The position numbers and the translations under genes were made by a program. 64,000 nucleotides of DNA from Verrucomicrobiia bacterium. Lineage in GTDB: Bacteria > Verrucomicrobiota > Verrucomicrobiia > JADLBR01. The stretch covers positions 139,282 through 203,281 of the forward strand of contig DAOOOX010000002.1 of NCBI GenBank assembly GCA_035387945.1. Reading direction: 5' to 3'. The notes under the pieces were generated by a model, which saw only the letters and a program-made list of their open reading frames with translations, had not been told where the DNA came from and did no database searches. The stretch's first letter is position 1. Each line of letters begins with the position of its first letter. This document shows, in pieces, positions 4,421-47,214 of this stretch.

Positions 4421-5821
4421 ATGAGGATACTCCTGCTCCTTCTCGCCGCCTGCTGCACCGCAACCTCCGCACAAATCCCGAATTTCGTCCTCGCGATGGC
4501 CGACGATCAGGGCGCCGGCGACATGGCCTACTGCGGCCATCCCACCCTCCACACCCCAAACTTTGACAGCCTGTCGCGCGAAGGGCTCCGCCTCGACCGC
4601 TTCTACGCCGCCGCGCCCGTCTGCTCGCCCACCCGAGGCAGCGTGATGACGGGCCGCACGCCAAACCGATACGGCTGCTTCAAGTGGGGCTACACGCTCC
4701 GGCCTCAGGAGGTCACTGTCGCCGAAGCCCTCAGGCGCGCCGGTTACACGACGGGACATTTCGGCAAATGGCATCTGGGCTCCCTCCGGCCCGACAGCCC
4801 CACATGCCCCGGCCAGAGCGGTTTCGACACATGGTTCTCCAGCCCCAACTTCTTTGACGTCGACCCCTGGATGGCCCGCGAGGGCAAGTCGATCCACACC
4901 TCCGGCGAAGGCTCCGAGGTCATCGTCGATGCCGCGCTCGAATTCATCCGTGGTGCCGCCAGGGCCGGGCGCCCCTTCCTCGCCGTGGTCTGGTTTGGTT
5001 CGCCCCACTCACCGCACATCGGCACCGAAGCGGACCTCGCGCTCTATAAGGATCAACCCGAAAAAATGCGGCCTTTCCTGGCCGAGATCACCGCCATGGA
5101 CCGCGCCATGGGCAAGCTCCGCAGCGGTCTCCGCGACGCGGGCATCGCCCAGAACACCCTCCTGTGGTACTGCTCCGATAACGGCGCAATCCAAGAGGGC
5201 TCCACCGGCGGCCTCCGCGGCAAGAAAGGCAGCATCTGGGAGGGCGGCCTCCGGGTGCCCGCCCTCATGGAGTGGCCCGTGCGAATCCGCCAGCCCCGCG
5301 CGTGCGACGTCCCATGCGGCACCGTCGATATCTTCCCAACCCTTCTGGAACTGGCCGGCGCGAAAGTCCCCGCGCGCCCGCCCCTCGACGGCATCAGCCT
5401 CGCCTCACTCATCGATGGCACCATGGCCTCCCGCCCCAGCCCCATGGGTTTCTGGGATTACCCCATCCGCGGCCTCCAAACAAAAAGCACGGAACTCCTC
5501 GAGACCCTCGCCCAAGAGCAGGCCTCAGGAAAGGTCCGCCCAGCCGCGGAGGCCGAACCCATCCCCGCCGCCCAACTCCGCACCGACTACCCCACTGACT
5601 CGTTTCCGGGCCACGCCGCCTGGCTCGATAACCCTTGGAAACTCCACCGCATCCAAGAGAAAAACGGCCCCGTCAAATATGAACTCTACAACCTCGCCGC
5701 TGACCCGACCGAATCTCACGACCTCGCCAACACCGAACGCGAGCGCATCCCCCGCATGCAGGCCGGGCTGGAAAACTGGCTGCGCTCTGTCGTCGCCAGC
5801 CTCAACGGCGCGGATTACTGA
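4421..5821 (+). CDS. Formylglycine-dependent sulfatase (arylsulfatase family)
   Basis: Signal peptide MRILLLLLAACCTATSAQ. The sulfatase signature C-S-P-T-R-G-S-V-M-T-G-R (C-x-P-x-R) and GKWHLG are present. ATG 4421 was verified; alternative upstream starts are at 4349 and 4379. Confidence 0.85.
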   Translation: MRILLLLLAACCTATSAQIPNFVLAMADDQGAGDMAYCGHPTLHTPNFDSLSREGLRLDRFYAAAPVCSPTRGSVMTGRTPNRYGCFKWGYTLRPQEVTVAEALRRAGYTTGHFGKWHLGSLRPDSPTCPGQSGFDTWFSSPNFFDVDPWMAREGKSIHTSGEGSEVIVDAALEFIRGAARAGRPFLAVVWFGSPHSPHIGTEADLALYKDQPEKMRPFLAEITAMDRAMGKLRSGLRDAGIAQNTLLWYCSDNGAIQEGSTGGLRGKKGSIWEGGLRVPALMEWPVRIRQPRACDVPCGTVDIFPTLLELAGAKVPARPPLDGISLASLIDGTMASRPSPMGFWDYPIRGLQTKSTELLETLAQEQASGKVRPAAEAEPIPAAQLRTDYPTDSFPGHAAWLDNPWKLHRIQEKNGPVKYELYNLAADPTESHDLANTERERIPRMQAGLENWLRSVVASLNGADY

Positions 5822-5948: not shown

Positions 5949-5992
5949 TTGACATCCCCTTTTGCCCATGTCATCATCTGATCATATGAGTG
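5949..5992 (+). promoter_or_regulatory. Candidate promoter and near-palindromic operator upstream of or overlapping the GntR gene start
   Basis: TTGACA at 5949-5954 is followed 17 nt later by CATCAT. The segment CATGTCATCATCTGATCATATG has TCATCA / TGATCA half-sites in inverted orientation, as GntR/FadR operators often do. Confidence 0.2.
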
Positions 5993-6687
5993 CTGTCGCT
6001 ACCCATGCGCTGCGCCTTGAACGCCGCGAAACCCTCGTCGAAGCCACCGCCCGCGCCCTCATCCGGTACATCTCGAAACAAGGTCTGGTCGGTGGTGATC
6101 GCCTGCCATCGGAACCCGAACTGATCGACATGGTTGGCGTGAGTCGCCTGCCGCTGCGCGAGGCACTCTCGATCCTGAAAGGCATCGGGATCGTGGAGGC
6201 GCACCACGGCAAGGGCGTCTTCGTCAAAAACCTGGATATCGCCTCGGTCTTCAGCCTGCTCTCCCCGCTCCTGAAGGCACAGGTCAACATAGGTGTGCCG
6301 CAGATCATCGAGGCGCGTCTTCATCTGGAACCTGTCATCGCCTCGCTCGCAGCCGAGCACCGGAGCCATGCTCATTTGGCTGAACTGAAGGAGCAGATCG
6401 CACAGATGAAGGCCCACTTGGAGGATCGCGCGACATTCATCGATGCCGACGTCGCTTTCCACCAGTGCCTCGCACGCGCGGCGGGCAATCCGATCTTCCA
6501 CGTCTTCATGGCCGCCCTGACCGACCTGTTGCGCGAGGTGCAGTATCGCTACCCCGACCAGCTCCAGCACCGCGAGGCCTCCCTGAGATTCCACGAGCGC
6601 ATCAACGCCGCCGTCCAAAGTCGCGATGCCAGTGCGGCATCTTCCGCGATGCGCGAACACATCCAGTACATTGCCGAACGGCTGTGA
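5962..6687 (+). CDS. GntR-family transcriptional regulator (FadR-like C-terminal domain)
   Basis: N-terminal winged HTH (LPSEPELIDMVGVSRLPLREALSILKGIGIVEAHHGKGVFV) with an all-helical C-terminal effector domain. Its stop overlaps the GTG start of the downstream gene (GTGA). Confidence 0.8.
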   Translation: MPMSSSDHMSAVATHALRLERRETLVEATARALIRYISKQGLVGGDRLPSEPELIDMVGVSRLPLREALSILKGIGIVEAHHGKGVFVKNLDIASVFSLLSPLLKAQVNIGVPQIIEARLHLEPVIASLAAEHRSHAHLAELKEQIAQMKAHLEDRATFIDADVAFHQCLARAAGNPIFHVFMAALTDLLREVQYRYPDQLQHREASLRFHERINAAVQSRDASAASSAMREHIQYIAERL

Positions 6688-9600
6688 GAACCATCTCGAT
6701 CGCCATCGTCTTCGCAGCTCTCCTCGGCGAGGTTTCGACCGCCGCCTCTCCCACGTCGTTCGTCTTCACGCTGGTGCCCGATGCGCGCGCCAACGCGGCC
6801 ATCCAAACCGAACTTGAGTACGACACCCGCGAGTGGCACGGCTCCACTTTCTGGACCGGACCCGATTGGACCCGCGTTGGAAAAGACTGGCACCACCCGG
6901 GCCAGAACACAGCCAGCGTTCGCCGCTTCACCTGCCCGCGCGATGGACACATCACGATCGCGGGACGCGTTTTCAAACGACACCTCGCCGGCGACGGAAT
7001 CGTTGCCAGGGTCTTCCACAACAACCGTGAAATCTGGCGCGTCCAGATCGCCGGCGACGACGCCACCGGCAAGTCTCACAAGCTCCCCATAAACGCCCAA
7101 CGGGGCGACACGGTCCGCTTCGTTGTCGAGAAAAACGGCAGCATCGGTTGCGACACAACCGGCTGGGACCCCACCATCGCGTACGACGACGGGACCGCTT
7201 TCACCGCCTCGGCCGCCTTCGCCGCGCACACGCAGGGCGCTTCGGGTTGGCATTACGAAATGGCTCCAGACGGTCAACCCCTGAAACCAACGCCATCGGC
7301 CAGCATTCGCTATTTCGGCCCAGACCTGAGCCTAACAGAAAAATCTCTTCCCGCTCGCCTCACCCAGCAGGACGCCCTCCCGTTCGCCATCATCTCAGCC
7401 ACCCCCAACGACCCGGCCCACGTCGTCGCCTTTGACTCATCCGCTCCATGGGCCCTCTCCGCAGCCCCAATGCCCGACGGCACCGTCCGCCTCGCGGGGG
7501 TATCCGAGAGCTCCGCGCCAGTCTGGCACGCCAAATTCCGAGGCGACTGGGCCAACGGCCTCATCGCCATGGAAGCCGCCATTCGTTCCGGCGATGCACC
7601 GGCCACGCTCCGCAAATGGTTCGACATGACCCTCGCGCGCACCGAAACCACGCTGCCCCTCTGGGCCATGGTCCAGGAAGAATGGATCCGCCAGGACCAG
7701 ATCGATGGCTCGGTCTCCCGTTATCTCGCGGCCACGACCAACCAGACCGCCCGCGCAATGGCGGCGCTCGCCTCACTGGGAGATGCCCCAGGCGCGCCCC
7801 CCCGGCAGACCGCGATCGGGGAACTCTCCCGATTAAGCGCTCGATGCTCAGGGTCGCTCGCGGGCGCCGCCGCCCGCTCCCTCTGGCTGGATGCCCGCAT
7901 TTTGAAGCGCCGCATCCTGCTCGCCCACCCGCTCCTTGATTTCGGCGAGTTGCTCGTCTGCAAGCGCGCCATGCCCTCATGGAGCCACCTTGTCGCCCAA
8001 TACTTTGGATGGCGGCAGCGCCCCGGCGGCGGCCTCTTCGTCGTCACCAGCCCCGGCCACTCCCTCGAAACCCGGGACATACTTCGCTCCCAGCTGCCCC
8101 CCGGCAGCGTGCTCGAGCCCCGCCTCGCGCCGGATGGTCGCCGCATCCTGTTCGCCCACGTTGCCTGTGGCACTGACGCCCCCGAACCCGACCAGCTGCC
8201 CGTCAACGAGCGCGGCGATGGCGACCGCTATTTCCACCTCTACGAGATCAACATCGACGGCTCCGGTCTGCGCCAGATCACCGACGATTCTTATGACGAC
8301 ATGATGGCCGAGTACCTCCCGGGCGGCGATATCGTCTTCTGCTCCACTCGGCGCAAAGGCTATTCACGCTGCTTCGGGCCCGAATACTCCAACCGCTGGC
8401 ACACTTACACCCTCCACCGCATGCGACCCGATGGCTCACACATCCGCACCCTGTCCTTCAACGACGTCTCCGAATGGTTCCCATGCATCGCCCCATCAGG
8501 AGAGGTGCTTTTTGCCCGCTGGGACTACATCGACCGCGATGCCGTCACCCATCAGAACCTCTGGGCTATGCGCCCCGACGGCACCAACCCCACGGCCCTG
8601 TGGGGCAATGCCACCCCAAAGCCCCACTGCACCTTCCAAGCCCGCCCTGTCCCCGGTAGCCGAAAACTTGTCTTCATCGCGTCCGCTCACCACTCCATCA
8701 CCGGCGGACCCGTCTGCCTCCTCGATCCCACCATAGATCCCAACAGCCTCGACGCCGTCACCCGCCTCACGCCCGAGCCTTTCCCCGAGGCAGAGGGCAA
8801 ACCGAAGGAGTGGTATCAGTCGCCATGGCCACTCTCGGAATCCCTCTTCCTCGTCGCCCACAGCCCGTTCCCGCTCCGCTTCCAGGGCGAGCACATCCGC
8901 GAACCCAACCCCGATAATGCTCTTGGCATCTGCCTCCTCGATTCCTCCGGAAACCGCGAATTGCTCTACCGTGACCCAGACATATCCACCACCACCCCAA
9001 TCCCGCTGCGCCCCAGCGGCCAACCCGCCAAGGCCATCGCCACCACCTGCCCATCCACCGAGACCGGTGTCGGTCGCATGCTGGTCGCCGATATTTACCA
9101 AGGACTCGGGGATGTCCCGCGCGGTACGATCAAGGAACTGCGCATCGTCCAGCTCTTTCCAAAATCCACATGGCTCGCCAATAATCCCCGCATGGGTGTG
9201 GCCGGCGAAGAGAACGGTCGCGCAATCATTGGGACCGTGCCCGTCGAGGCCGATGGCTCCGCGTACTTCGAGGTGCCGGCCGGCAGGCAGATCCTCTTTC
9301 AGGCGCTCGACTCCTGCGGCATGGCATACCAGACCATGCGATCATCCACCTATGTCCAGCCCGGCGAGACGACCGCTTGCATCGGTTGCCACGAGCACCG
9401 CATGCTGGCGCCTCCCCCCGCCTGCGGACGACCTCTGGCCACCACCCGCCCGCCATCGCGAATCGACCCGGGAAAGCTGGGGGGCCGCCCCTTCGGCTTC
9501 GTCGAGATGGTGCAGCCCATCTTGGATGCCAAATGCGTGAGCTGCCACGGCGGCGAAAAGACAGACGGGGGCATCGATCTCTCCAGAAAGCCCGAGGCCG

Positions 9601-9941
9601 GCTTTAACCGCGCCTACATCGCCCTCTGCGGAACACCCGATTCATGGAAGGAACGCGGCTTCGTCCCCGCCTTTGCCGAGAAACTTCTCGTCCCCCGCTT
9701 CGTGCAGCGCAACCAGATACAGATGACTCCGCCCGGCGGCGCGTACGGCGCCCGCGGCAGCCGACTCATGCGGCTCCTTCTCAATGGCGACGGCCACGAG
9801 GGCGTCAGACTCTCCGACGACGACATCCGCCGCCTCGCCGCATGGATCGACCTCAACGCCATCTTCTACGGCTCATACGACCCAGAACACCAAGCCGCCC
9901 AGCTCGTCGGCAAACTCGTCCCCATGCCCGCCACCCAGTGA
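6684..9941 (+). CDS. Secreted di-heme-c beta-propeller protein, HzsA-like architecture (paralog A), with an N-terminal beta-sandwich domain
   Basis: GTG 6684 (verified in frame) gives signal peptide MRTISIAIVFAALLGEVSTAASP; the track ORF start at 6465 overlaps the GntR gene and is rejected. PD40/TolB-like propeller repeats (HLYEINIDGSGLRQITDD; ARWDYIDRD...MRPDGTNP). Two CXXCH motifs (CIGCHEHR, CVSCHGGE). C-terminal motif AAWIDLNAIFYGSYD is shared with the three downstream paralogs. Confidence 0.6.
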   Translation: MRTISIAIVFAALLGEVSTAASPTSFVFTLVPDARANAAIQTELEYDTREWHGSTFWTGPDWTRVGKDWHHPGQNTASVRRFTCPRDGHITIAGRVFKRHLAGDGIVARVFHNNREIWRVQIAGDDATGKSHKLPINAQRGDTVRFVVEKNGSIGCDTTGWDPTIAYDDGTAFTASAAFAAHTQGASGWHYEMAPDGQPLKPTPSASIRYFGPDLSLTEKSLPARLTQQDALPFAIISATPNDPAHVVAFDSSAPWALSAAPMPDGTVRLAGVSESSAPVWHAKFRGDWANGLIAMEAAIRSGDAPATLRKWFDMTLARTETTLPLWAMVQEEWIRQDQIDGSVSRYLAATTNQTARAMAALASLGDAPGAPPRQTAIGELSRLSARCSGSLAGAAARSLWLDARILKRRILLAHPLLDFGELLVCKRAMPSWSHLVAQYFGWRQRPGGGLFVVTSPGHSLETRDILRSQLPPGSVLEPRLAPDGRRILFAHVACGTDAPEPDQLPVNERGDGDRYFHLYEINIDGSGLRQITDDSYDDMMAEYLPGGDIVFCSTRRKGYSRCFGPEYSNRWHTYTLHRMRPDGSHIRTLSFNDVSEWFPCIAPSGEVLFARWDYIDRDAVTHQNLWAMRPDGTNPTALWGNATPKPHCTFQARPVPGSRKLVFIASAHHSITGGPVCLLDPTIDPNSLDAVTRLTPEPFPEAEGKPKEWYQSPWPLSESLFLVAHSPFPLRFQGEHIREPNPDNALGICLLDSSGNRELLYRDPDISTTTPIPLRPSGQPAKAIATTCPSTETGVGRMLVADIYQGLGDVPRGTIKELRIVQLFPKSTWLANNPRMGVAGEENGRAIIGTVPVEADGSAYFEVPAGRQILFQALDSCGMAYQTMRSSTYVQPGETTACIGCHEHRMLAPPPACGRPLATTRPPSRIDPGKLGGRPFGFVEMVQPILDAKCVSCHGGEKTDGGIDLSRKPEAGFNRAYIALCGTPDSWKERGFVPAFAEKLLVPRFVQRNQIQMTPPGGAYGARGSRLMRLLLNGDGHEGVRLSDDDIRRLAAWIDLNAIFYGSYDPEHQAAQLVGKLVPMPATQ

Positions 9942-9945
9942 TCTC

Positions 9946-12900
9946 ATGAGCCCGATGGCAGATCAAAACGTGAAAACGACCGCCGCTGGGCCGTCGCCTC
10001 GCCGGAATCCGTCCGCGACCGCGACCCGGCCCGGCGCGGGCATCCTCACCCGCCGTCTCCTCCTGCTCGCCATCGCACTGACCGCAGCGCCCCTGGTCCA
10101 TGCGAGTGAGATGGACGCGTTCACCATCCGGGCAACCGACTTCGACGAAGGCAACGTCCGGATCAGCCTCGCGGGCGAGGCGTATGCCGACGGGCACCCC
10201 TGCATCTGGCACGGCAGCGGCTCGCCAGATCAGGCGGGGTATGTGATCGAGTTTCCCGTCACCGGTGACTACACCCTGTCTGCCTTGTATGCGGCAGCTA
10301 AGTCGCGACCCGTCGAGATCAGTATCGACGGAAGACCAGTTCATACCGGGCTCACGGACGTGACCGGCAGCTGGCAGACGAAGTCGGCAAAGTGGGAAAA
10401 GCAATGCACGTTGCGCATCGAACGTGGCACGCACACGATCACCCTTCAACGCGAAGGCCCACTGCCGCACATCTGCGCTTTGCGGATTGAACCGCCCGCC
10501 CCACTCCCCGCGGGAACGACTCTCGGGCGCCTCAGTCCAGAGGAACGCGCCGAGCGGGCGCGCATCGCCGAGCATCGGGCGGAGATCCAAGCGAAAGTTG
10601 CGGCGCTCAAAAGCATCAACATCCAAGCCGTACGCCTAGCCATCGAAGACATGGAACGGAGTTTTCCGGGACGGTACGACGGGGTGAAACATCGGCGAGC
10701 GTTGGCCGAGTTTGCGCGCATCCACGAATCGCTCGCAGAGGCGCTCGATAAGGGCGAACTGCCTGAAACCGCACCACCGGTCGAAGAATTGCTCGCCGGG
10801 ATACGGACCGCCCTGCTGGAAAATCCCCTGCTCGATTTCGACAGATTGTTGGTGATGCGACGTCGCCCGAGGGACAGCAACGGCTTTGTCCCCGCCAACT
10901 ACCTGTCGCACGCCAGCATAACAGGCCGAACCGGATGGGATAATGAGATCGCGGTGCTCGCTGATCTGCGCGGAAAGGCCACGCTGCAGACTCTCCATCG
11001 GCCGAAGGAGACGCGCATCCTGCGCGACGTGCGCCTAGATTTCGATGCGAATAGGGTCTTGTTCTCCAGCATTGACGATAGGGGCCGATGGGCCGTCTAC
11101 GAAATCCCATCCACCGGCGGCGAACCTCACCAGATCACGCATTCAACGTTCCCGGATGTGGATTTCTTCGACGCCTGTTATCTGCCCGACGGACGGATCA
11201 TCGTGGCCTCGACAGCGAATTATCACGGCGTCCCCTGTCTCGGCGGGCAGCAGCCGGTGGCGACACTCTATCTTTTGGAGCCCGCGGCAGGAAAACTCCG
11301 GCAGCTCACATTCGACCAGGATCACAGTAATGATCCTGCCGTTCTCAACGACGGGCGCGTGCTCTACCAGCGCTGGGAGTACAGTGACATCCCTCACTAC
11401 TTCGCGCGCCGACGAATGACGATGAACCCAGACGGCACCGGGCAACTTGCGTTGCACGGCAGCGGCTCGTGGTTCCCAACGGCGTTCCGCTTTGCCCGAC
11501 CGGTTCCGGATCATCCGACGATGCTGGTCGGGATCATCAGCGGACACCATGATTACGGCGACTGTGGCCGCCTCGCTTTGCTCGACCCGGGACTGGCCGG
11601 CGGCTATCCGTTCCGTTACCGGCCAGCGTCGAAAGAGTGGGGCGTCGAAGGCCAGCACGTCGCCCTCACCCCGGATATCCTGCCCGCAGAAAAGACCGGG
11701 TTCTTGCAGCTGGCGCCGGGCCGCGGCAAACCGGTGGCCGGCACCGTCTGCGACAACATCGTCAGGGGCGTCTATCTCAAGGAGCGGCCGGAGTTGATGA
11801 CGCACCCGCATCCGCTGAGCGGCAAATACTTCCTCGTCGCGATGAAGCCGACGCCCCGGAGCCTCTGGGGCATCTATCTGGTGGACGCTTTCGACAACAT
11901 GACGCTGGTCGTCGAGGAAGAGGGAGCGGCGCTATTCGAGCCGGTCCCGTTGCAGCCAAGAAAACGCCCCCACGTGATCCCCGACAGGGTCGACCTTGGC
12001 AAGAGGACCGCCACGGTGCATATCGGCAATATCTATGCCGGTCCCGGGCTGAAGGGCATACCGGATGGCACGGTCAAGTCGCTGCGCGTTTTCTCCTACC
12101 ATTTCGGGTACCTGGGCAAGGCGAGCTTCGAGATAATTGGCACGCAGGCCGGCTGGGATGTGAAACGCGTCCTCGGCACCGCCAGGGTGGAATCGGACGG
12201 CTCGTCTTTGTTCGTCGTCCCGGCGAACACCCCCATTTCGATCCAACCGCTCGACGGCGAAGGCCGCGCGGTACAACTGATGCGGAGCTGGCTTGTCGGC
12301 ATGCCGGGCGAACGGGTCTCCTGCACCGGTTGCCATGAGAACCGCGCCGAGACGTTGTCGGTCAGACGCACCTTGGCCGACCAGCGCTTGCCGGAACCAT
12401 TGGCGCCGTGGTTCGGGCCGCCGCGACCGTTTGACTTCGCCAACGAGGTGTATCCGGTCCTTCAAAAGCACTGCGGTGGCTGCCACGAAGACAGACCAGC
12501 GGTTGGCCCTCGCGCCAAACCGTCGTTCAGCCAACCTGACGTTGCCTACGACACGCTGCACCCGTACGTCCACCGCCCGGGGCCAGAAGCCGACATGGCA
12601 CCTCTCAACCCCATGGAGTATCACGCCTCCAGCAGCCGACTGATCCAGATGCTTGAGAAGGGACACCACGGTGTCCGGCTCGATAACCTCCCTCGCGAGT
12701 CCCGCGAACGCCTCTACTGCTGGATCGACCTCAACGTGCCCCGGCGCGGTTCGTATGAGCTGCCCGCCGACAAACAGCACATCGCCCAGCGCCGACGCGA
12801 ATTGAACAAGGTGCTGGCGGAGATCGAGCCCGACCCCGAGCAAGAGGCGCGGCAGTTGGCCGAAGCCAGGAAAAATGCACCGCCGGTTGTTTTCGAACCG

Positions 12901-13839
12901 CCCGCGAGACCCGCCGACGAACCACCCGACGTGCTCCAGGTGGATGGCTTTCCCCTCGACGCGGCGGCCGCTGCCGAACGCCTGCGCGGGGCGCCAGGCG
13001 GCGGCATCAAGACGATGGAGTTTGGCCGGGGAGTGCGGCTGGTGCTGCGCTGGATCCCCTCTGGCGAATTTGTCATGGGCAGCCGCGACGGGGCGCGGGA
13101 CGAACGTCCTCGCGCAACGGTCAAGGTCGCACAGCCGTTCTGGATGGCGGAAGCCGAGATCAGCAATGCCCAGTACGCGCTCTTCGATCCCGAGCACGAC
13201 ACGCGCTACATCGACATGCACCACATGGATCGGGTGACCCCCGGCTACATCGCCAATCATCCCGACCAGCCGGTCGCGCGTGTCTCCTGGCAGCAGGCGA
13301 TGGCTTTCTGCGAATGGCTCGGCCTCAAGATCGGCCTGCGGGTGACCCTGCCCACCGAAGCCCAATGGGAATGGGCCGCGCGCGGTGGCACCGACACGCA
13401 ATTCTTCTACGGCACCATGGACACGGATTTCGGACGTTTTGCGAATCTGGCCGATCAGTCGTTGCGCTGGTTCAAGATGGGCTATCCAGGCCCCGGGAAC
13501 CTGCAGCCGCGCCTCCCCTATCCATCGGACAACAACTTCCCGTTGCGTGACGAACGCTTCCGCGACAAGTACCATGTGGTGGACTACGTCGGCCAGACCG
13601 AACCGAATCCGTGGGGCTTGAACGATATGATTGGCAACGTCAGCGAATGGACCCGCTCCAGCTATCGCCCGTATCCGTATGCCGATGACACGCGCAACGA
13701 TGAGAACCCTGGCGAGCGCAAAGTCGCCCGTGGCGGTTCCTGGGCCAACCGGCCCGCTGATGCGGGCTCATCGGTGCGTCGCGCCTACGAATCGTGGCAG
13801 AAAGTGTACGATGTCGGCTTCCGGGTGATCGTTGAATAG
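9946..13839 (+). CDS. Secreted di-heme-c beta-propeller protein (paralog B) with an N-terminal CBM6/35-like domain and a C-terminal FGE-sulfatase-like (DUF323) domain
   Basis: ATG 9946 (verified) lies 4 nt after the paralog A stop. Signal peptide RRLLLLAIALTAAPLVHA. CBM-like beta-sandwich (GYVIEFPVTGDYTLSALYAAAKSRPVEISIDG). Propeller repeats (VYEIPSTGGEPHQITH; YQRWEYSD). CXXCH x2 (CTGCHENR, CGGCHEDR). CWIDLN motif. C-terminal about 290 aa have an FGE-like fold (RWIPSGEFVMGS...ARGGSW...GFRV) but no cysteine pair. Confidence 0.6.
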   Translation: MSPMADQNVKTTAAGPSPRRNPSATATRPGAGILTRRLLLLAIALTAAPLVHASEMDAFTIRATDFDEGNVRISLAGEAYADGHPCIWHGSGSPDQAGYVIEFPVTGDYTLSALYAAAKSRPVEISIDGRPVHTGLTDVTGSWQTKSAKWEKQCTLRIERGTHTITLQREGPLPHICALRIEPPAPLPAGTTLGRLSPEERAERARIAEHRAEIQAKVAALKSINIQAVRLAIEDMERSFPGRYDGVKHRRALAEFARIHESLAEALDKGELPETAPPVEELLAGIRTALLENPLLDFDRLLVMRRRPRDSNGFVPANYLSHASITGRTGWDNEIAVLADLRGKATLQTLHRPKETRILRDVRLDFDANRVLFSSIDDRGRWAVYEIPSTGGEPHQITHSTFPDVDFFDACYLPDGRIIVASTANYHGVPCLGGQQPVATLYLLEPAAGKLRQLTFDQDHSNDPAVLNDGRVLYQRWEYSDIPHYFARRRMTMNPDGTGQLALHGSGSWFPTAFRFARPVPDHPTMLVGIISGHHDYGDCGRLALLDPGLAGGYPFRYRPASKEWGVEGQHVALTPDILPAEKTGFLQLAPGRGKPVAGTVCDNIVRGVYLKERPELMTHPHPLSGKYFLVAMKPTPRSLWGIYLVDAFDNMTLVVEEEGAALFEPVPLQPRKRPHVIPDRVDLGKRTATVHIGNIYAGPGLKGIPDGTVKSLRVFSYHFGYLGKASFEIIGTQAGWDVKRVLGTARVESDGSSLFVVPANTPISIQPLDGEGRAVQLMRSWLVGMPGERVSCTGCHENRAETLSVRRTLADQRLPEPLAPWFGPPRPFDFANEVYPVLQKHCGGCHEDRPAVGPRAKPSFSQPDVAYDTLHPYVHRPGPEADMAPLNPMEYHASSSRLIQMLEKGHHGVRLDNLPRESRERLYCWIDLNVPRRGSYELPADKQHIAQRRRELNKVLAEIEPDPEQEARQLAEARKNAPPVVFEPPARPADEPPDVLQVDGFPLDAAAAAERLRGAPGGGIKTMEFGRGVRLVLRWIPSGEFVMGSRDGARDERPRATVKVAQPFWMAEAEISNAQYALFDPEHDTRYIDMHHMDRVTPGYIANHPDQPVARVSWQQAMAFCEWLGLKIGLRVTLPTEAQWEWAARGGTDTQFFYGTMDTDFGRFANLADQSLRWFKMGYPGPGNLQPRLPYPSDNNFPLRDERFRDKYHVVDYVGQTEPNPWGLNDMIGNVSEWTRSSYRPYPYADDTRNDENPGERKVARGGSWANRPADAGSSVRRAYESWQKVYDVGFRVIVE

Positions 13840-13851
13840 GATTCTTGCGCC

Positions 13852-16800
13852 GTGAAAACGATTCGAACGAATGGGAAACGGTTGGCACACGCAGGTCTAT
13901 GCTGTCTCGTTCTCGCGTCCTTGGCCCCGGGCGTCGGCGGCATGGCCGTGCCCCCCGCCCCTGCCGATGCCGATCAATCGCTCCTCGCCCACTGGACCTT
14001 CAACGAACCCATGGGCGAAACCTGCCGCGACGTGACCGGCCACGGATGCGACGCGGCGTTGCAGGGCACGCCATCGGGCGCAGAGCGAACGACCGGCATC
14101 TCCGATGGTGCACTGGCCTTCAAGGGAAACCATCGCCTGCTATGCGGTCAGAAACCCGCGTTCGGTCCGCTGCCCCAGATCTCCCTCTCGGCATGGGTCC
14201 AGCCAAACGCCTTCGACCGCTACAATGAGATCTTCCGCAAGGAGGATGGCAACAACCGCGTCCTCTTCTCCTTCCAAGAGGATGGCAAGGTCCTCGCCCT
14301 GGGCCTCAATATCGGCGGCTACGTCGAGTGCGATGCCAAGCTAGATCCAAAGCAGGTCCTCGATGGCGCGTGGCACCACTGCGCTGCCACGTTCGACGGC
14401 CAAGTCATGCGCGTCTACCTCGACGGAGTCCAGATTGGCGTCCTCCAACGGCCCGGCACGATCACCGCCGGCGGTCCCGCGCCAGCCGCCATCGGTTCCG
14501 CCAACGGACACGAGTGCTTCCAGGGCGCGATGGATGACCTCCGCATATACGCCACCGCACTCACCCACACCGAAGTTGCCACCCTCCACGCAATCGGCGT
14601 CGAGGCTATCGCCCGATCGAACGCCACCGCCACGAAAACTCTCGAGGCGCTCCTCTCTCCCCGCAACTCGTTCGCCGAAACACTGGCGGCATCGCGCCGC
14701 AACCTCATCGAAAAACAGCTGTCCCTCGACGCCGCCGTCGCCCGCGCCTTCCTCGCCCGACTGCAGGCCCAGTTCCCCGAAGACTGCCGCCAGTTCCGCC
14801 TCTGGACGGGCGCTGATCCCATCGCCTACCTCCGCGCCAAAGGCAACGATTTCCACCTCGCCATCACCGGGCGCCTCATCGGCATGCTCGTCGAATACCG
14901 TCCCTTGACCCAGGCCCAGTGGTCCAGACAGACCGAACAGGACCGGACCCGTTGGCGCGATGCCGACGTGCTCGAAGAGCGATTGGCCGCGCTAAAGGCA
15001 CGCGGCGATGAGATCCAGTTCTCGCCCGAATGGATCGCGCTGATGCAGGAAATCGCATCCCGTATCCAGTGGCGACCCTACGAGTACGAACCCGTCGCAC
15101 CGTTCATCCCACCCTCAACTCCCGAAACGCGAGATCTCACAGCCGACGAAGGCCGCGATGCGCTGGAACGCGACTGGCTCCATCAGGCCAACAACAGGCC
15201 CACTCGCGAGCACGTCGCCAACGAGATCGGCTGGGCCAAAGAGCTGGCCGCGCGCCTCCACAATGTCGATCTCTCGGCGGAACTCGCCTCGTTGTCGAGA
15301 ATCGAGGAAAGGGCGCAGGCCGCCAGCGCGGACATCGCCTCCCTCTATCTGCAGACCCGCACCGTCAAACGCAGCATCATGCTCAAGAATCCTGCGGTGA
15401 ATTTCCGGCGCGTCGTGTTTGTCGATATGCCCCTCCCCAATGGCAAGGAATGGAAACACGAGACCCGACACCGCCTCGGCTACATGGCCGTGCCCGGAGC
15501 ACGACTCCTCGTCCTCGATGGCCTCCGCCCCGACGGCAAGATCGCCCGCCTCATGCCCCGGCCGCCCCTCCACGGCTCTTTCTGGCGGCCCGATGTCTCC
15601 TTCGACGGGCGCAAGATCCTCTTCTGCTTCAAACCCCATAACGAAAAATCATTCCACCTCTACGAGATCGGCGCCGACGGCACCGGACTGCGGCAACTCA
15701 CCGATGGGCCATTCGACGACCTCGACCCCATCTATCTCCCCGACGGCCACATCCTGTTCTCCACAACCCGCGGCCACACCTATGTCCGCTGCATGCCACC
15801 CACCAGCTCCTTCGTCCTCGCCCGCTGCAACGCCGACGGCCGAAATATCTACCTCGTCTCCGCAAACAACGAGCCGGATTACCTGCCGTCGGTCATGGAT
15901 GATGGCCGCGTCGTTTACACGCGGTGGGAATACACCGACAAGCCGCTCTGGCGCGCCCAGAAACTCTGGACGATCAACCCGGACGGCACGCAGGTGCAGA
16001 TGCTCTGGGGCAACCAGAGCGTGTGGCCCGATGTCATGAAGGATGCCCGCTTGATCCCAGGAACCCGCCGCGTGATGTTCACCGGCTGCGGTCACCACGA
16101 CTGGTTTGCCGGCTCGGTCGGAATCGTGGATCCCGATCGCGGGCGAGACTTTCCCGAAGGCCTGACCAAGGTCACCGGGGAAATCCCGTGGCCAGAATGC
16201 GGCAACGGACCCACGGACCCGATCGAGTCGCCCCGCTACCACCCCCACGGCAAGTTCACCGCATATTACTCCCCCTATCCCCTGAACGAACATGACTTCC
16301 TCGTCTCTGCCACCCGAGGGGACAAGTTTGCCCTCTATCTCATGGACGTCGACGGCAACCGCGAACTGATCTACGAGGGAACCCATAACGTATTCCACGC
16401 CATCCCCGTGCGCCCACGGCCGCAGCCCCCGATCATCGTCGATCGCGTCGCGTGGCCGAAGGTCGAAACAGGCTCCCGCGCCAAGGACGGAGTCATTTTC
16501 AGCAACAATGTGTACGATGGCGCCCCCAGGGAACTGCGCGGTAAGGCGAAGTACCTGCGCGTCCTGCACATCGATCCGAAAACATACACCTATTGGTACA
16601 AACGGCCCTACATCTCCACCGGTCCGGTCGTCTCCGGCGTGCAGTCCGAGGGCGTCAAGCGCATCCTCGGCACGGTGCCTATAGAACAAGATGGCTCCGT
16701 CTCATTCCACGTGCCGCCCGGCAAGGCGCTGCACTTCCAGCTTCTCGATGAGAACTTCCGAGCGCTCCAGACGATGCGCAGTTTCGTGGGCGTCATGCCG

Positions 16801-17493
16801 GGCGAATATCGCGGCTGCCTGGGCTGCCACGAGTCACACAGCCGCGCGCCGACCGTCGCCGCCCCCGCCCGCGCGCTGGTGCAATCACCGCGCAACATTA
16901 CGCCCCCGCCCTGGCCCGACGCCACGGTCAGCTATCCCCGATACGTTCGACCCGTTCTGGACAGATACTGCGCCAAGTGCCACGCGGGCGACGGCGAGGG
17001 CCGAAAAACGCTCGACTTGACCGCCAGGCCCGGCTTCCTCGATTTCGACGAGGTCTACTGGCTCCTGATCGGCAAGCCCACGTGGGGCAAAGCCTACGAG
17101 CTGCCCAAGGACTGCCCACCCGGTTTCGGCATCGCCGACACCTTCCTCGTCGAGGGCTATGACAAGGTCGATCCCGTCGCCTACCGCACGCCTCCCCCCA
17201 TGACCCGTCTCTCATACCGCAGCCGATTGATCGATATCGCCTCCAGCGGCAAACACCACGACGTGCGCGTGGACGAAATCAGCCTGCAGCGGCTCATCTG
17301 CTGGGTGGACACGATGTGCCCCTACCGCGGCGACGAAGAAGTCCGCCAGGAACCCGATCCAATCTTTCAGGGCGTCGATTGGCTCGCCGTCCGCCCGCGC
17401 ATCCAAACGGCCCCCATCGTCGATCGCTTTCACATCTCGTCCTACGGGGATTACAATTTCACATCGGCGAGCTCCGTCAAAGAGTCCCCATGA
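13852..17493 (+). CDS. Secreted di-heme-c beta-propeller protein (paralog C) with an N-terminal LamG-like lectin domain
   Basis: Signal peptide LCCLVLASLAPGVGG. LamG/ConA-like domain (LAFKGNHRLL...LSAWVQPNAF...MRVYLDGVQIG...DDLRIYATAL). Propeller repeats (FHLYEIGADGTGLRQLTDG; YTRWEYTDKP). CXXCH x2 (CLGCHESH, CAKCHAGD). CWVDT motif. Confidence 0.6.
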   Translation: MKTIRTNGKRLAHAGLCCLVLASLAPGVGGMAVPPAPADADQSLLAHWTFNEPMGETCRDVTGHGCDAALQGTPSGAERTTGISDGALAFKGNHRLLCGQKPAFGPLPQISLSAWVQPNAFDRYNEIFRKEDGNNRVLFSFQEDGKVLALGLNIGGYVECDAKLDPKQVLDGAWHHCAATFDGQVMRVYLDGVQIGVLQRPGTITAGGPAPAAIGSANGHECFQGAMDDLRIYATALTHTEVATLHAIGVEAIARSNATATKTLEALLSPRNSFAETLAASRRNLIEKQLSLDAAVARAFLARLQAQFPEDCRQFRLWTGADPIAYLRAKGNDFHLAITGRLIGMLVEYRPLTQAQWSRQTEQDRTRWRDADVLEERLAALKARGDEIQFSPEWIALMQEIASRIQWRPYEYEPVAPFIPPSTPETRDLTADEGRDALERDWLHQANNRPTREHVANEIGWAKELAARLHNVDLSAELASLSRIEERAQAASADIASLYLQTRTVKRSIMLKNPAVNFRRVVFVDMPLPNGKEWKHETRHRLGYMAVPGARLLVLDGLRPDGKIARLMPRPPLHGSFWRPDVSFDGRKILFCFKPHNEKSFHLYEIGADGTGLRQLTDGPFDDLDPIYLPDGHILFSTTRGHTYVRCMPPTSSFVLARCNADGRNIYLVSANNEPDYLPSVMDDGRVVYTRWEYTDKPLWRAQKLWTINPDGTQVQMLWGNQSVWPDVMKDARLIPGTRRVMFTGCGHHDWFAGSVGIVDPDRGRDFPEGLTKVTGEIPWPECGNGPTDPIESPRYHPHGKFTAYYSPYPLNEHDFLVSATRGDKFALYLMDVDGNRELIYEGTHNVFHAIPVRPRPQPPIIVDRVAWPKVETGSRAKDGVIFSNNVYDGAPRELRGKAKYLRVLHIDPKTYTYWYKRPYISTGPVVSGVQSEGVKRILGTVPIEQDGSVSFHVPPGKALHFQLLDENFRALQTMRSFVGVMPGEYRGCLGCHESHSRAPTVAAPARALVQSPRNITPPPWPDATVSYPRYVRPVLDRYCAKCHAGDGEGRKTLDLTARPGFLDFDEVYWLLIGKPTWGKAYELPKDCPPGFGIADTFLVEGYDKVDPVAYRTPPPMTRLSYRSRLIDIASSGKHHDVRVDEISLQRLICWVDTMCPYRGDEEVRQEPDPIFQGVDWLAVRPRIQTAPIVDRFHISSYGDYNFTSASSVKESP

Positions 17494-17512
17494 ACAAGCG
17501 CCATATCGCCCT

Positions 17513-20395
17513 ATGAAATCGGACATCCGGACAGACGCGTTCTGGCCGCCACGACGAAGCACGAGTGACACGAAGAGACGGCCCTCTTCGTGCGTCTTGT
17601 GCGCATTCGTGGCCATCCTCGCCGCCATTCCCGCCTCCGCCTCCGAGCCCTTCACCAGCACCTTCGAGGCCCAGCCTGCGCGCTTCATCCGCGTCATCAT
17701 CCGCGCCACCAGCCAAGGCCAGCCGTGCATCGATGAACTCGAACTCTTCGGTCCCGACGGGAAAACAAACCTCGCGCGCGCGTCGCGTGGCGCCAGGGCC
17801 ACCGCCTCCTCCAGCCTGCCCGGCCACGCCATCCACCGCATCGAGCACCTCAACGATGGCCTGTACGGCAACAGCCACAGCTGGATCGCGGCGACCACGG
17901 GCGAGGAATGGGCGCAGATCGAGCTGCCCGAACCCGCCCCCGTCGCAAAGATCGCCATCTCCCGCGACCGTGAGGACCAGTATGCCGACCGCGTGCCAAC
18001 CGCGCTAGACGTCCGGCTCTCCATGGACGGCGCGCACTGGCAGACGGTCGCGCAAATGATGAACCATGCGCCCGCCCGCACCGCGAAACGCCAAGCCCCA
18101 CCCTATAAGCCCCCCGCCGACATGCCCGAACCGATCACGTGGGACGGGCTCCTTCGCTACGCCTTCCTCTGCGAGAAGGCCACGTGGGAACGACTGGACC
18201 GCGAGGACCATCTCTCGCCCCTTAACGTCGAACGCCCCGCCTATCCCGGCGGCCCACCCTATTGGGGCCGCGTCGCCAAGCTTTCCCAAGCCCAACGCAC
18301 GCTGACGCTCCTGGAGGAAATGATCGATCGCCTCGGCAAGAAAGGCGTCGATGTGCTCGCCGAGCGCCAACAGCTCGCCACCCTGCGCGCGCGTCAGACC
18401 GCCGATGGCGACGCCGTGTACTTGGAGGCACGCCTCGCCAAGCGCCAGCTTATCTTCCGCGACCCCGACCTCGCATCACTGCAGCGCGTCCTCTTCGTCA
18501 AACGCCACCCATACCTTTCGTCCCACAACTACAGCGATGTGCTCGACTCGCAGTTCCGCCCCGGAGGCGGCATCTACCTGCTGGAGATTCCCCGCAGCCA
18601 CGGTCGCCTCATTCCCGAGGCCGCCAGACTGACAATCCTCTTCGACGCCACCGATGGCATCGCCCGGGATCCCATGGCGGACTTCGACGGCAAGAAGGTC
18701 TACTTCGCCTTCCGCCCCGATAAAGGCCCGGCCGACGACGCGGCAGCCTACTGGCACCTGTGGTCGGCGAACGCCGACGGGTCAGGCGCCCGGCAGTTGA
18801 CCGACGGTCCCTTCCACGATTACTACCCGTGCCCATTGCCAGACGGTGGACTTGCGTTCATCTCCACCCGCTGCCGCGCGCGCTTCCTCTGCTGGCGGCC
18901 GCAGGCATTTGTCCTGTTCCGCATGGATGCCGATGGTGGCGATATCAGGCCCCTGTCTTACGCCAACCTCAGCGAATGGTCGCCGACGGTGATGCGCGAT
19001 GGGCGCATCCTCTGGACACGCTCGGAATACATCGACAAGGGCGCGGACTTCGGCCACACGCTCTGGGCCATCCGACCCGACGGCACCCACCCCGAGCTGA
19101 TCTTCGGCAACAATACGCCAAACTGCTACATCAACGGCCGCCAGGTGCCCGGCACCCACGAGATCCTCTCCACGATCTTCTCACACGGCGGCGACCACAA
19201 CGGCCCGCTGGGTTTGATCGACCTTGCCAAGGCGAAGGGCCCCTCCGATGTCGATGCCATCACCAACATCACCCCCGACACCAGACCCCATTACAACATG
19301 AACTGGCCGCGGCACGAATGCTGGCGAGACCCCGTGCCGATGACCCGCGACTACTTCCTCGCCAGCCACGCCCCGGCCGACCGGTTCGGACTGTATCTCC
19401 TCGATCGCTTCGGCAACCGCGAACTGCTCTTCCTCGATCCCGCGATCGGCAGCATGTGCCCCTCGCCACTGCGGCCAGAACCAGCCCCCCCCAGGCTCGA
19501 GCATTCGGCGCCCCCGCTCGCGCAGGCGCAGGTCGGCGTGCTAACGGTGGCCGATGTCTACCAGGGCCTGGGGCCCGCCGTGCCCCGAGGCCAGGTGAAG
19601 TTTATCCGAGTGTGCCAAGAGGTCCGCGCCGATCTGCTCCGATTGCCCGACGGCTCGTATCAGAACGACCACAGTCCATTCCAGGATTGGTACGCCACGC
19701 CAATCCATAAAGTCAACGGCCCGAACGGTTGGCCAACCTACGTCGCAAAGGCCTCGCTCGGCCTGGCCCCGGTCGAGACCGATGGATCCGCCTGCTTCTA
19801 CGCGCCCGCAGGCAAGATCCTCTACTTTCAGGCCCTGGACAAAAACCTCAACGAACTTCAGCGGATGCGCAGCGTCGTCCAACTCCAGCCCGGCGAACAG
19901 CGCGGCTGCATCGGTTGCCACGAGGACCGACAAACCGCCGCCCCGGTGCGCCAGACAATGGCGTCGCGACGCCCGCCCAGCACGCTGGATCCACCCCCGT
20001 GGGGCGCCGTTCCATTCGCCTACGAGCGCGTCGTGCAACCCGTCTGGGATGCGAAATGCGTGCGTTGCCATGATGCCTCGCACGAGCGGGGCATCAACCT
20101 GACCGGCGCGCCAGATGCCGATCACGTTCCGACATCCTATCGCACGCTGATCGCCGGTGGGTGGGTCCACTACTTTGACATGACCTACCGTCTCCGCCAC
20201 ACGATGGCCCCGCCGATGTCGTTCGGCACCTTGCAGAGCAAGTTACTTCGGGTCATCGATGCCGGTCACCACGACGTGAAACTCACCCGCGACGAGACCC
20301 ACGCCGTCAAATGCTGGATCGACCTCAACTGTCCCCTCTGGCCCAACTACGAATACCGGCCCGAGCGCACCCCGCTCGCATCGGCCGCCCCATGA
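17513..20395 (+). CDS. Secreted di-heme-c beta-propeller protein (paralog D) with an N-terminal F5/8 type C (discoidin-like) domain
   Basis: Discoidin-like domain (ARFIRVIIRATSQGQPCIDELELFG...WQTV). Propeller repeats (WHLWSANADGSGARQLTDG; WTRSEYIDKG). CXXCH x2 (CIGCHEDR, CVRCHDAS). CWIDLNCP motif. The signal-like stretch VLCAFVAILAAIPASA suggests the true start may be a downstream TTG/GTG. Confidence 0.6.
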   Translation: MKSDIRTDAFWPPRRSTSDTKRRPSSCVLCAFVAILAAIPASASEPFTSTFEAQPARFIRVIIRATSQGQPCIDELELFGPDGKTNLARASRGARATASSSLPGHAIHRIEHLNDGLYGNSHSWIAATTGEEWAQIELPEPAPVAKIAISRDREDQYADRVPTALDVRLSMDGAHWQTVAQMMNHAPARTAKRQAPPYKPPADMPEPITWDGLLRYAFLCEKATWERLDREDHLSPLNVERPAYPGGPPYWGRVAKLSQAQRTLTLLEEMIDRLGKKGVDVLAERQQLATLRARQTADGDAVYLEARLAKRQLIFRDPDLASLQRVLFVKRHPYLSSHNYSDVLDSQFRPGGGIYLLEIPRSHGRLIPEAARLTILFDATDGIARDPMADFDGKKVYFAFRPDKGPADDAAAYWHLWSANADGSGARQLTDGPFHDYYPCPLPDGGLAFISTRCRARFLCWRPQAFVLFRMDADGGDIRPLSYANLSEWSPTVMRDGRILWTRSEYIDKGADFGHTLWAIRPDGTHPELIFGNNTPNCYINGRQVPGTHEILSTIFSHGGDHNGPLGLIDLAKAKGPSDVDAITNITPDTRPHYNMNWPRHECWRDPVPMTRDYFLASHAPADRFGLYLLDRFGNRELLFLDPAIGSMCPSPLRPEPAPPRLEHSAPPLAQAQVGVLTVADVYQGLGPAVPRGQVKFIRVCQEVRADLLRLPDGSYQNDHSPFQDWYATPIHKVNGPNGWPTYVAKASLGLAPVETDGSACFYAPAGKILYFQALDKNLNELQRMRSVVQLQPGEQRGCIGCHEDRQTAAPVRQTMASRRPPSTLDPPPWGAVPFAYERVVQPVWDAKCVRCHDASHERGINLTGAPDADHVPTSYRTLIAGGWVHYFDMTYRLRHTMAPPMSFGTLQSKLLRVIDAGHHDVKLTRDETHAVKCWIDLNCPLWPNYEYRPERTPLASAAP

Positions 20396-24421: not shown

Positions 24422-24700
24422 GGACCTGCTGCGGACCGCATGTCTGGCTCGGCCCAATGCCACCATATTCATACGTTTTCATAACGCGCGTTCAAAGTCG
24501 AGGAGAAGCATGCCCCGCTGATGGCGAGGATGCTCATAAAGGGCGAGAACCTCGCATTGCAAGACTCCGCCCAAATCGGAACCTCCTGCGCCACAGCAAC
24601 CTCTGTCCCATGGGCCGACCCCCGATCTCGGCTTCACCACCGGATCCCACGACACCGGGTTGCCGTTGCCTCAAGCCTCCCCCTCCGCTATGGGTGAGGC

Positions 24701-33507: not shown

Positions 33508-33592
33508 AAACCGTTTTTCTGCCTTTCCCTGCACACCCCCAGCGCGCTAGCTTTTCACCCGTCTCATCAAAACCAGAATAAGGAGCATTACC

Positions 33593-34600
33593 ATGGCACG
33601 TCCCGTCACCCTTTTCACCGGCCAGTGGGCCGACCTCCCCATCGCCACCCTCGCCAAAAAGGCCAAAGCCTTCGGCTATGACGGTCTCGAACTCGCGTGC
33701 TGGGGCGACCACTTCGACGTCGCCCAAGGCGCCAAGGGCAAGGCGTACTGCGACGCAAAGCACGAGCTGCTCGCCAAACACGGCCTCAAGACATGGGCCA
33801 TCTCCAACCACCTCGTCGGCCAGGCTGTCTGCGACAACATCGACGAGCGCCACAAACCCCTCCTCCCCCCCCATGTCTGGGGCGATGGCAAACCCGAAGA
33901 TGTCCGCAAGCGCGCCGCCGAAGAGATGATGAAGACTGCCCACGCCGCCAAAAACCTCGGCGTCAAGGTCGTCAACGGCTTCACCGGCTCCAAGATCTGG
34001 CACTTCCTCTACAGCTTCCCGCCCGTCAGCGCGGCCCAGATCGATGACGGTTTCGAGGACTTCGCCAAGCGCTGGAACCCCATCCTCGACGAGTTCAAGA
34101 AATGCGGCGTCAAGTTCGCCCTCGAGGTGCATCCCACGGAGATCGCCTTCGACGTCGCCAGCGCCGAGCGCGCCGTCGCCGCCGTCAAAGGCCGGCCCGA
34201 ATTCGGTTTCAACTATGACCCCTCGCACCTCGGATATCAGGGCGTCGATTACATCGCCTTTATCCGCAAGTTAGGCAACCGCATCTACCACGTCCACATG
34301 AAGGACGTGTACTGGTCGCCCGTGCCCACGGAAGCTGGCGTCTTCGGCGGCCACACCAACTTCGGTGACGTGCGCCGCTTCTGGGACTTCCGCTCCCTCG
34401 GCCGCGGATGCGTCAAATTCGAGGAGATCATCCGCACCCTGAACCGCGTCGGCTACGATGGCCCGCTATCCGTGGAGTGGGAGGATAGCGGCATGGATCG
34501 CGAGCACGGGGCCGCAGAGGCCGCCGCGTTCGTCAAGCGCGTTGACTTCCCCCCGAGCAAAATCGCGTTCGACTCCGCCTTCGATAAAGAAAACCAGTAG
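33593..34600 (+). CDS. Sugar phosphate isomerase/epimerase (xylose-isomerase-like TIM barrel)
   Basis: N-terminus matches the AP-endonuclease-2/xylose-isomerase-like fold ([24 protein letters not shown]...FALEVHPTE). A strong SD (TAAGGAG) lies 8 nt upstream of the ATG. Confidence 0.8.
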
Positions 34601-34773
34601 CCGATCAGGCGCGCGACGCCGACTCGAAAATTGCGAATCTTGTAGGCCGTCTCTGCGAGACGGCAGCGGCGGATAGGGTGGCGTCTGACACAGACGCCCT
34701 GCAACCCGATTTTCTGCCCCGGTGGTGCCCGCCCGGCGGGGCATGGAATGACTCGAAGACTCCAGGCGCAGGG

Positions 34774-34827
34774 ATAGTAGGAGCCTGCTTGCAGGCGATT
34801 GGAATCGCGCGCAAGCGCGCTCCTACG
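34774..34827 (+). repeat. Palindromic extragenic repeat, family R1, copy b
   Basis: About 90% identical to copy a. It is embedded in a 230-bp intergenic cluster of further hairpins (GGCCGTCTCTGCGAGACGGC, GGCGTCTGACACAGACGCC, GCCCGCCCGGCGGGGC), a REP/BIME-like organisation. Confidence 0.7.
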
Positions 34828-34835
34828 TTCCATCT

Positions 34836-40301: not shown

Positions 40302-40309
40302 GCCTGCCC

Positions 40310-44754: not shown

Positions 44755-44756
44755 GT

Positions 44757-47031: not shown

Positions 47032-47047
47032 CCGGACCACCGGGGCA

Positions 47048-47208: not shown

Positions 47209-47214
47209 CCCCCC

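Follow-up and report, generated by a model that had tools for sequence, protein, structure and literature searches.

A cysteine-less FGE-fold domain at the C terminus of a hydrazine-synthase-alpha-like two-heme protein from a Verrucomicrobiia bacterium

Protein B and its C-terminal FGE-fold domain

We analyzed a 64,000-nucleotide stretch of the genome of a Verrucomicrobiia bacterium (contig DAOOOX010000002.1, positions 139,282 to 203,281; hereafter the window) and in particular protein B, one of four tandem paralogs (A-D), whose C-terminal part resembles the formylglycine-generating enzyme (FGE) that matures sulfatases. The open reading frame (ORF) of B runs from 9784 to 13839 on the forward strand, and Pfam placed in its translation an HZS_alpha domain (PF18582; hydrazine synthase alpha) at residues 762-852 and an FGE-sulfatase domain (PF03781) at residues 1090-1349. 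The real start of B is almost certainly the ATG at 9946 and not position 9784, since this codon follows the stop of paralog A by five bases, gives the product a signal peptide and matches the public gene call. The protein of 1297 residues so defined (9946..13839, + strand) was described from Pfam matches, motifs, the gene call and a structural model. The 54 codons upstream of the start (9784-9945), a low-complexity run rich in Ser, Thr and Pro that overlaps the end of paralog A, are most likely no part of the protein but a non-coding extension, the frame being open by read-through in GC-rich DNA. An identical 1297-residue protein was found on seven metagenomic contigs, which reach lengths of 0.2-1 Mb and stem from several samples deposited at ENA and JGI. 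The organism thus recurs across samples, and assembly of its near-complete genome would probably be feasible.

B begins with a signal peptide (9946-10107, + strand; …RRLLLLAIALTAAPLVHA), followed by a CBM6-like module (10105-10500, + strand) that scored 27 bits, just below the cut-off of 28.9; database annotation records the corresponding family, PF03422, for several B homologs. A helical linker then leads into a TolB/PD40-like six-bladed propeller and the HZS_alpha middle domain (PF18582; 12067..12339, + strand; E 2e-29). This domain ends in the first of two heme c motifs, CTGCH (12322-12336, + strand), and the second, CGGCH (12472..12486, + strand), is invariant in the B family and in paralogs A-D. 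An ordered linker joins the two-heme region to the FGE-fold domain (13051..13830, + strand). The original prediction had described a di-heme propeller fused to about 290 residues with the signature of the FGE fold, and both parts of that description held: the PF03781 match had an E-value of 2.8e-42 and 145.6 bits against a cut-off of 23.3 and covered model positions 7-254 of 255, and every sequence string quoted in the prediction was present. The alignment also indicated that the FGE motifs LPTEAEWE, GNxxEWT and RGGS[WY] are kept in the window domain.

We compared B with its homologs (108 sequences) and found that conservation peaks in the FGE-fold domain: mean identity to the window sequence is 72% there, whereas it is 68% in the propeller, 69% in the middle and heme part and 37-46% in the linkers; constraint on the domain is thus stronger than elsewhere in B. 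The Ca2+-site ligands of human FGE (SUMF1), Asn259, Asn293 and Glu300, stood opposite N, D and E, all three invariant in the 108 sequences. By this alignment, the domain retains its fold as well as the residues opposite the ligands of the two structural Ca2+ sites. Relative to human FGE, the domain carries a family-specific insertion of about 26 residues. A family-specific loop rich in His and Asp, DPEHDTRYIDMHHMD (13186..13230, + strand), stands where FGE has the segment that forms the pocket for the substrate Arg. In B numbering, H1084 of this loop is invariant, D1085 occurs in 107 of the 108 sequences and H1092 in 103.

An AlphaFold2 model of B residues 185-1297 (1113 residues), built with the 108 homologs as input, had a pLDDT of 90.0 and a pTM of 0.88. 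The linker entering the FGE-fold domain was ordered in this model (pLDDT 81-94), and the domain is predicted to be rigidly attached to the rest of B. The pLDDT of the His/Asp loop was 56-63 when the domain was modeled in isolation and rose to 77-81 in the long model, which suggests that the loop packs against another domain of the protein. A Foldseek search with the B model returned the alpha subunit of hydrazine synthase (5c2v_A) as the best match in the PDB (E 4.6e-24); lower-ranking matches were FGEs, PvdO and TvpA, which covered the C-terminal domain, and TolB, which covered the propeller.

The match to the Kuenenia stuttgartiensis alpha subunit (5c2v chain A) extended over the propeller, the PF18582 domain ending in CxxCH and the second heme c domain, with a TM-score of 0.59 on the target, 825 aligned columns and 15% identity. 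The CBM6-like and FGE-fold modules of B are additions to this common plan. In a functional alpha subunit, heme alpha-I is ligated by a Tyr at position +4 from the CxxCH motif while the His of the motif is diverted to zinc, and the subunit works with a beta-gamma partner. Unlike this enzyme, B has no Tyr at the +4 position of its first heme motif (CTGCHENRA), and a canonical His-ligated heme is therefore expected. This fits a published analysis in which the non-anammox HZS-alpha homologs examined lack key residues and have a canonical His-ligated heme, and in which none of the top structural matches to HZS-alpha has an experimentally confirmed function (PMC12758564); a term search of the text of that paper found no mention of sulfatase or FGE-type domains. 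Pfam scans of the window detected no beta-gamma-like or cytochrome c peroxidase-like gene, and B scored 26.7 bits on the HZS-alpha family model (NF052339), whose cut-off is 800. By family-model score, the ligand Tyr and the partner gene, all read from the sequence, B lacks the marks of a functional HZS alpha subunit.

Comparison of the domain with FGE and with other relatives of the fold

Canonical FGE has two active-site cysteines (Cys336 and Cys341 in the human enzyme) that bind Cu(I). We aligned the human SUMF1 core to the domain in two ways, with a hidden Markov model (HMM) profile of 107 family domains and with MAFFT L-INS-i; over 286 residues the core used matched PDB 1y1e with 100% identity, and the positions of both cysteines were fixed accordingly. 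The last 284 residues of B contain a single Cys, located in AFCEW, and so no indel can conceal a cysteine pair. The family profile aligned to human FGE through GGSY-M and ended exactly before Cys336. In the MAFFT alignment, Cys336 stood opposite Asn and Cys341 fell inside a 3-residue deletion, while Trp299 stood opposite Ser and the RCAAR motif opposite GSSVR. The copper-binding loop of FGE, GGSYMC336HRSYC341, is replaced in B by RGGSWANRPADAG (13729..13767, + strand). When the 30 residues following GGSW were searched for C-x(3-6)-C, none of the 107 homologs had the pattern and 103 lacked Cys in that stretch altogether. The position of Cys336 is occupied by Asp in 102 of 108 homologs and by Asn in the window protein, a second Asp lies four residues further on in 98 of 108, and Ser occupies the Trp299 position in 95 of 108. 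We also looked at Asp154 and Ser155, which in human FGE-peptide complexes form the pocket for the Arg of the CxPxR motif; the FGE segment carrying them was gapped against the short family loop DPEHDTRYIDMHHMD, and the alignment there is uncertain.

These alignments leave very little doubt that the domain is not a copper/cysteine FGE. The original prediction had reported the copper-binding pair to be missing and had named its displacement by an indel as a finding that would overturn the non-catalytic reading. The comparison with SUMF1 that it proposed bears out the loss both at the cysteines and in the groove, where Trp299 is replaced, and the displaced pair was looked for and is absent. The Asp/Asn-x3-Asp loop and the His/Asp loop could mark a metal or polar ligand site at the place of the former copper site.

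The window domain shares its fold, Pfam family and motifs with FGE structures (SUMF1 1y1e; bacterial 2q17, 6muj, 5nxl and 6s07), to which Foldseek aligned it with E-values of about 1e-12 and 22-26% identity. It differs from them in the 140-190 subdomain with the Arg pocket, in place of which B has the short His/Asp-rich loop, and in its context: FGE stands alone, whereas the B domain is fused to a heme-propeller protein of 1000 residues. The nearest structures were non-FGE members of the fold, namely PvdO, TvpA and PorK. The figures from the comparison with known families, which carry no unit, were 26.7 for PvdO, 25.7 for TvpA, 23.6 for PorK, 22.2 for pFGE/SUMF2, 21.5 for CalU17, 20.9 for ToxD and 20.6 for EgtB. 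We also scored B on NCBIfam equivalog models, and every score was far under its cut-off: 90.7 bits against 350 for GldK (TIGR03525), 60.6 against 420 for SenA, 56.4 against 500 for PvdO (NF051459), 52.5 against 360 for EgtB and 24.6 against 400 for OvoA.

PvdO of Pseudomonas aeruginosa (PDB 5hha) is a periplasmic protein of the FGE fold on which the final oxidation of the pyoverdine chromophore depends. It is a stand-alone protein of about 280 residues whereas the B domain is fused, and no pvd genes were found around B in the Pfam scans of the window. TvpA (2y3c), PorK/GldK (9mzu), pFGE/SUMF2 (1y4j) and Tsi3 are binding or structural proteins of the FGE/FGS fold. TvpA-type domains are hypervariable and the B domain is not; PorK/GldK is a ring lipoprotein of the type IX secretion system and Tsi3 an immunity protein of the type VI secretion system, and Pfam scans found genes of neither system in the window. 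Tsi3 provides a precedent for a binding role of the FGE fold (10.1101/2021.05.21.445229), and FGS domains also occur in conflict systems (PMC7159879).

Distribution, gene neighborhood and the nearby sulfatase

A search of 5.8 billion proteins with B returned 1356 matches at E <= 1e-5. Among the 120 matches listed, PF18582 and PF03781 were both present in 117; these matches were mostly 1100-1450 residues long, were 43-97% identical to B and formed more than 100 clusters at 90% identity. Their hosts were metagenome-assembled genomes (MAGs) named Verrucomicrobia, Kiritimatiellae, Planctomycetota, Pirellulaceae and Armatimonadetes, to which the genome collection added a MAG labelled Lentisphaerae, Fuerstiella and the cultured strict anaerobe Pontiella sulfatireligans F21. 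Databases label the proteins 'SUMF1/EgtB/PvdO family nonheme iron enzyme' or 'formylglycine-generating enzyme required for sulfatase activity'. The fusion had been called unusual in the original prediction, and this view did not survive the search, given the number of clusters, the range of identities and the existing automatic annotation. Literature searches on hydrazine synthase with FGE-sulfatase, and on related terms, did not find the fusion described.

The domain by itself belongs to a superfamily with 141,380 representatives at E <= 1e-3 (exhaustive HMMER search, domain alone). We sampled ten single-stretch relatives of the domain with 47-60% domain identity. All eight long ones carried HZS_alpha, with extra modules that included Laminin_G_3, a SASA esterase and a Mala_s_1-like domain. 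The two apparently stand-alone relatives (~330-420 residues) were 5'-truncated gene fragments that start inside the heme domain or in the linker following it. Since all sampled relatives were either fused or fragments, this FGE subfamily seems obligatorily tied, as the C-terminal module, to HZS-alpha-like cores. The Cys-less FGE-fold subfamily, as identified from sequence, is widespread in PVC bacteria, and every sampled case is fused to an HZS-alpha-like two-heme propeller.

In the window, paralogs A-D form an array on the forward strand (6684-20395), with gaps of 4-19 nt between genes. Its members share the propeller and two-heme core, have signal-like N-termini and are 28-33% identical to B. 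Paralog A (6684..9941, + strand; 1085 residues, with the start taken from the public gene call) has HZS_alpha, two CxxCH motifs and an N-terminal region without a Pfam match. Paralog C (13852..17493, + strand) combines Laminin_G_3, and paralog D (17513..20395, + strand) F5/8 type C, with HZS_alpha and two CxxCH motifs. The accessory module thus differs from paralog to paralog, with none recognized in A, the CBM6-like and FGE-fold modules in B, Laminin_G_3 in C and F5/8 type C in D. A gene of the GntR/FCD family (5962..6687, + strand; FCD 4.1e-26, GntR 1.4e-14), the end of which overlaps the start of A, is a probable regulator of the A-D operon.

We examined 11 related loci with useful flanks for conserved neighbors. 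A D ortholog lay directly downstream of B in six of them (L001, L003, L004, L006, L008 and L017), with 65-74% identity by tblastn in the first five, and in L017 the two gene calls share one base, B ending and the D-type gene starting at 13732. In the window, paralog C sits between B and D. The recurrent adjacency suggests that B and D work together, paired or as a heteromer. Tandem HZS-alpha-like arrays, which occur in Verrucomicrobiota, Kiritimatiellia, Lentisphaerae and Planctomycetota, were common in the related loci, with five such genes in L008, and other neighbors included sugar transporters, GH3, a BNR protein, IclR/GntR regulators, URO-D-like genes, AP_endonuc_2 and GSDH. The locus of P. 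sulfatireligans F21 (L010; NZ_CAAHFH010000001.1, 2511558-2534431) contains an IclR/AraC-type regulator, two HZS_alpha-like genes, an iron alcohol dehydrogenase and the fusion gene, and it adjoins cell-wall synthesis genes.

Several other features of the window were recorded. A gene on the reverse strand (20402-24472), convergent with the end of the array, encodes a protein of 1356 residues with three lamin-tail domains and a CotH kinase domain. Further along, the region 29116-35792 holds a 1463-residue protein with a weak match to a GH2 TIM barrel, a xylose-isomerase-like TIM barrel of the AP_endonuc_2 family (33593-34600) and a homolog of the exosortase EpsH (34836-35792, - strand); a gene of the AP_endonuc_2 family is also found directly upstream of the B homolog in L019. 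The GC content was 61-69% throughout. The GC skew was negative in every 2-kb bin and cumulated to -5.2 over the 64 kb with no switch; parB lies within the window at 46930-48105.

An exported S1 (formylglycine-type) sulfatase is encoded at 4421..5821 on the forward strand (PF00884, E 2.5e-50), with a signal peptide and the motif CSPTR, in line with the C-x-P-x-R motif that had been reported for it. The gene lies ~4 kb upstream of B in the same orientation, and both products have signal peptides. A link between the two, implied by the original prediction, was not borne out by the comparative data. A sulfatase matched by the window sulfatase occurred within 10 kb in five of the 11 loci (L001, L002, L006, L007 and L017), was never adjacent to the B homolog and varied in orientation, and none was found within 10 kb of the Pontiella fusion gene. 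Since these genomes hold hundreds of sulfatases, five of 11 is no more than chance, and the nearness of the sulfatase to B looks like coincidence.

The enzyme that matures the window sulfatase was also looked for. No second FGE-like domain was detected in the 64 kb, either by Pfam scans of the large ORFs on both strands or by six-frame searches with the family HMM and human FGE. Likewise, Pfam scans of the large ORFs and inspection of CX3CX2C matches detected no radical-SAM enzyme, anSME included, in the 64 kb; the CX3CX2C matches belonged either to a ferredoxin-like ORF or to fragmentary ORFs unlikely to be genes. A gene set resembling formate hydrogenlyase or group-4 NiFe hydrogenase is present on the reverse strand (37702-46793) and comprises a NuoH/HycD-like gene, a fused 30 kDa and 49 kDa NiFe large-subunit-like gene, an antiporter-like gene, an NAD-binding/Fe-S gene, a Fer4_22 gene and a molybdopterin oxidoreductase. 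These genes hint at an anaerobic, facultative or fermentative lifestyle. Because of this hint, maturation of the window sulfatase by an anSME encoded elsewhere is more likely. Pontiella strains were reported to have a single anSME and 11-20 PF03781 genes, a situation that the authors called paradoxical, speculating that these genes are inactive or have another function (PMC6388578). P. sulfatireligans is a strict anaerobe, and an O2-dependent FGE in its fusion protein would therefore make no sense.

Possible roles of the FGE-fold domain

We consider it moderately probable that the domain is a C-type-lectin-like binding or docking module. It would have kept an intact, Ca2+-stabilized FGE fold and lost the formylglycine chemistry, and would have been permanently fixed at the C terminus in one clade of exported HZS-alpha-like proteins, in which it may bind a ligand, substrate or partner as a rigidly attached unit. 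The candidate binding surface would consist of the polar D/N-R-P-x-D loop that replaces the cysteine pair together with the invariant His/Asp loop, and could either serve the heme-propeller core or dock the co-encoded D-type paralog. The window sulfatase would then be matured by an enzyme encoded elsewhere, likely an anSME if the organism is anaerobic. Precedents for such a binding role are pFGE, PorK, TvpA, Tsi3 and the FGS domains of conflict systems. The lectin-like modules of the sister paralogs (Laminin_G_3 and F5/8 type C) and the CBM6-like module of B itself fit a modular family acting on glycans. Three points weigh against a binding module. Conservation is higher in the domain than in the presumed catalytic core, and some of its His and Asp positions are invariant, a pattern equally expected of a catalytic or metal-binding domain. 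Its closest structure, PvdO, is genetically required for an oxidation step. Finally, the carbohydrate-related neighbors are circumstantial, since the host genomes are rich in such genes.

The same conservation and the same invariant His and Asp residues would also suit PvdO-like catalysis, an explanation that we regard as unlikely but still as the strongest competitor of a binding role; the domain would carry out an oxidation at a hard-metal or acid-base site formed by the Asp/Asn-x3-Asp and His/Asp loops and pass the electrons to the two c hemes instead of O2. However, the activity of PvdO itself has never been demonstrated in vitro (10.1101/2021.05.21.445229), and the 56 bits of B on the PvdO model compare with a cut-off of 500. 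Paralogs A, C and D keep the heme-propeller core without an FGE fold, so that the core evidently has a function of its own, and the first Asp of the putative site is Asn in the window protein. In a broader form of the redox idea, which seems to us rather improbable, the FGE fold would have become a new redox-active domain in which an Asp/His site takes the place of the Cu-Cys2 center and the oxidation of a substrate is wired to the two c hemes; candidates for that substrate would be glycans, small molecules and even protein side chains, for example a sulfatase cysteine. If true, this would be an O2-independent periplasmic counterpart of FGE/PvdO chemistry and would give a reason for the retention of many 'FGE' genes by strictly anaerobic PVC bacteria rich in sulfatases.

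A non-canonical periplasmic sulfatase maturase would bind the CxPxR motif of exported sulfatases and convert its Cys to formylglycine independently of O2 and Cu, with the hemes as electron sink. The FGE fold, the co-oriented Cys-type sulfatase 4 kb upstream with signal peptides on both proteins, and the window's lack of an FGE or anSME speak for it, as do the many PF03781 genes of unassigned role in sulfatase-rich strict anaerobes (PMC6388578). Nevertheless, we hold it to be very improbable, as both catalytic cysteines are missing across the family, Trp299 is replaced and the segment with the Arg pocket (Asp154/Ser155) is gapped in the alignment; the proximity of sulfatases is likewise sporadic and lacking at the Pontiella gene, where the anSME can account for maturation. 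Two further possibilities are effectively refuted. One is a sulfoxide synthase of the EgtB/OvoA type; the EgtB, OvoA and SenA scores of B lie far under the cut-offs (52.5 bits against 360 for EgtB), and Pfam detected no DinB_2 domain, the N-terminal carrier of the iron-binding His triad in such enzymes, which excludes an EgtB-type iron site. The other is a TvpA- or Mtd-like binding domain diversified by a diversity-generating retroelement; the C-terminus of B is near-invariant across the 108 homologs, the window contains no template repeat of the last 300 nt of B, and Pfam scans of the window detected no reverse transcriptase. Of the EgtB-like and lectin-like comparisons made in the original prediction, the former is thus set aside, and the latter is kept as the role that we propose for the domain.

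The two database labels given above, FGE and nonheme iron enzyme, are both unsupported for the B family. If every PF03781 match is counted as a sulfatase maturase, the FGE content of PVC bacteria comes out too high, and the paradox reported for strict anaerobes with many 'FGE' genes (PMC6388578) arises from the same counting. The B-type fusion accounts for at least one such gene in P. sulfatireligans F21, which encodes a Cys-less module on an HZS-alpha-like cytochrome. The B family is large, conserved and uncharacterized, combines an HZS-alpha-like two-heme propeller with lectin-like modules in sugar-utilization neighborhoods, and bears on the debate over the function of non-anammox relatives of hydrazine synthase (PMC12758564). 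Its occurrence in a cultured host, P. sulfatireligans F21, makes the family experimentally accessible.

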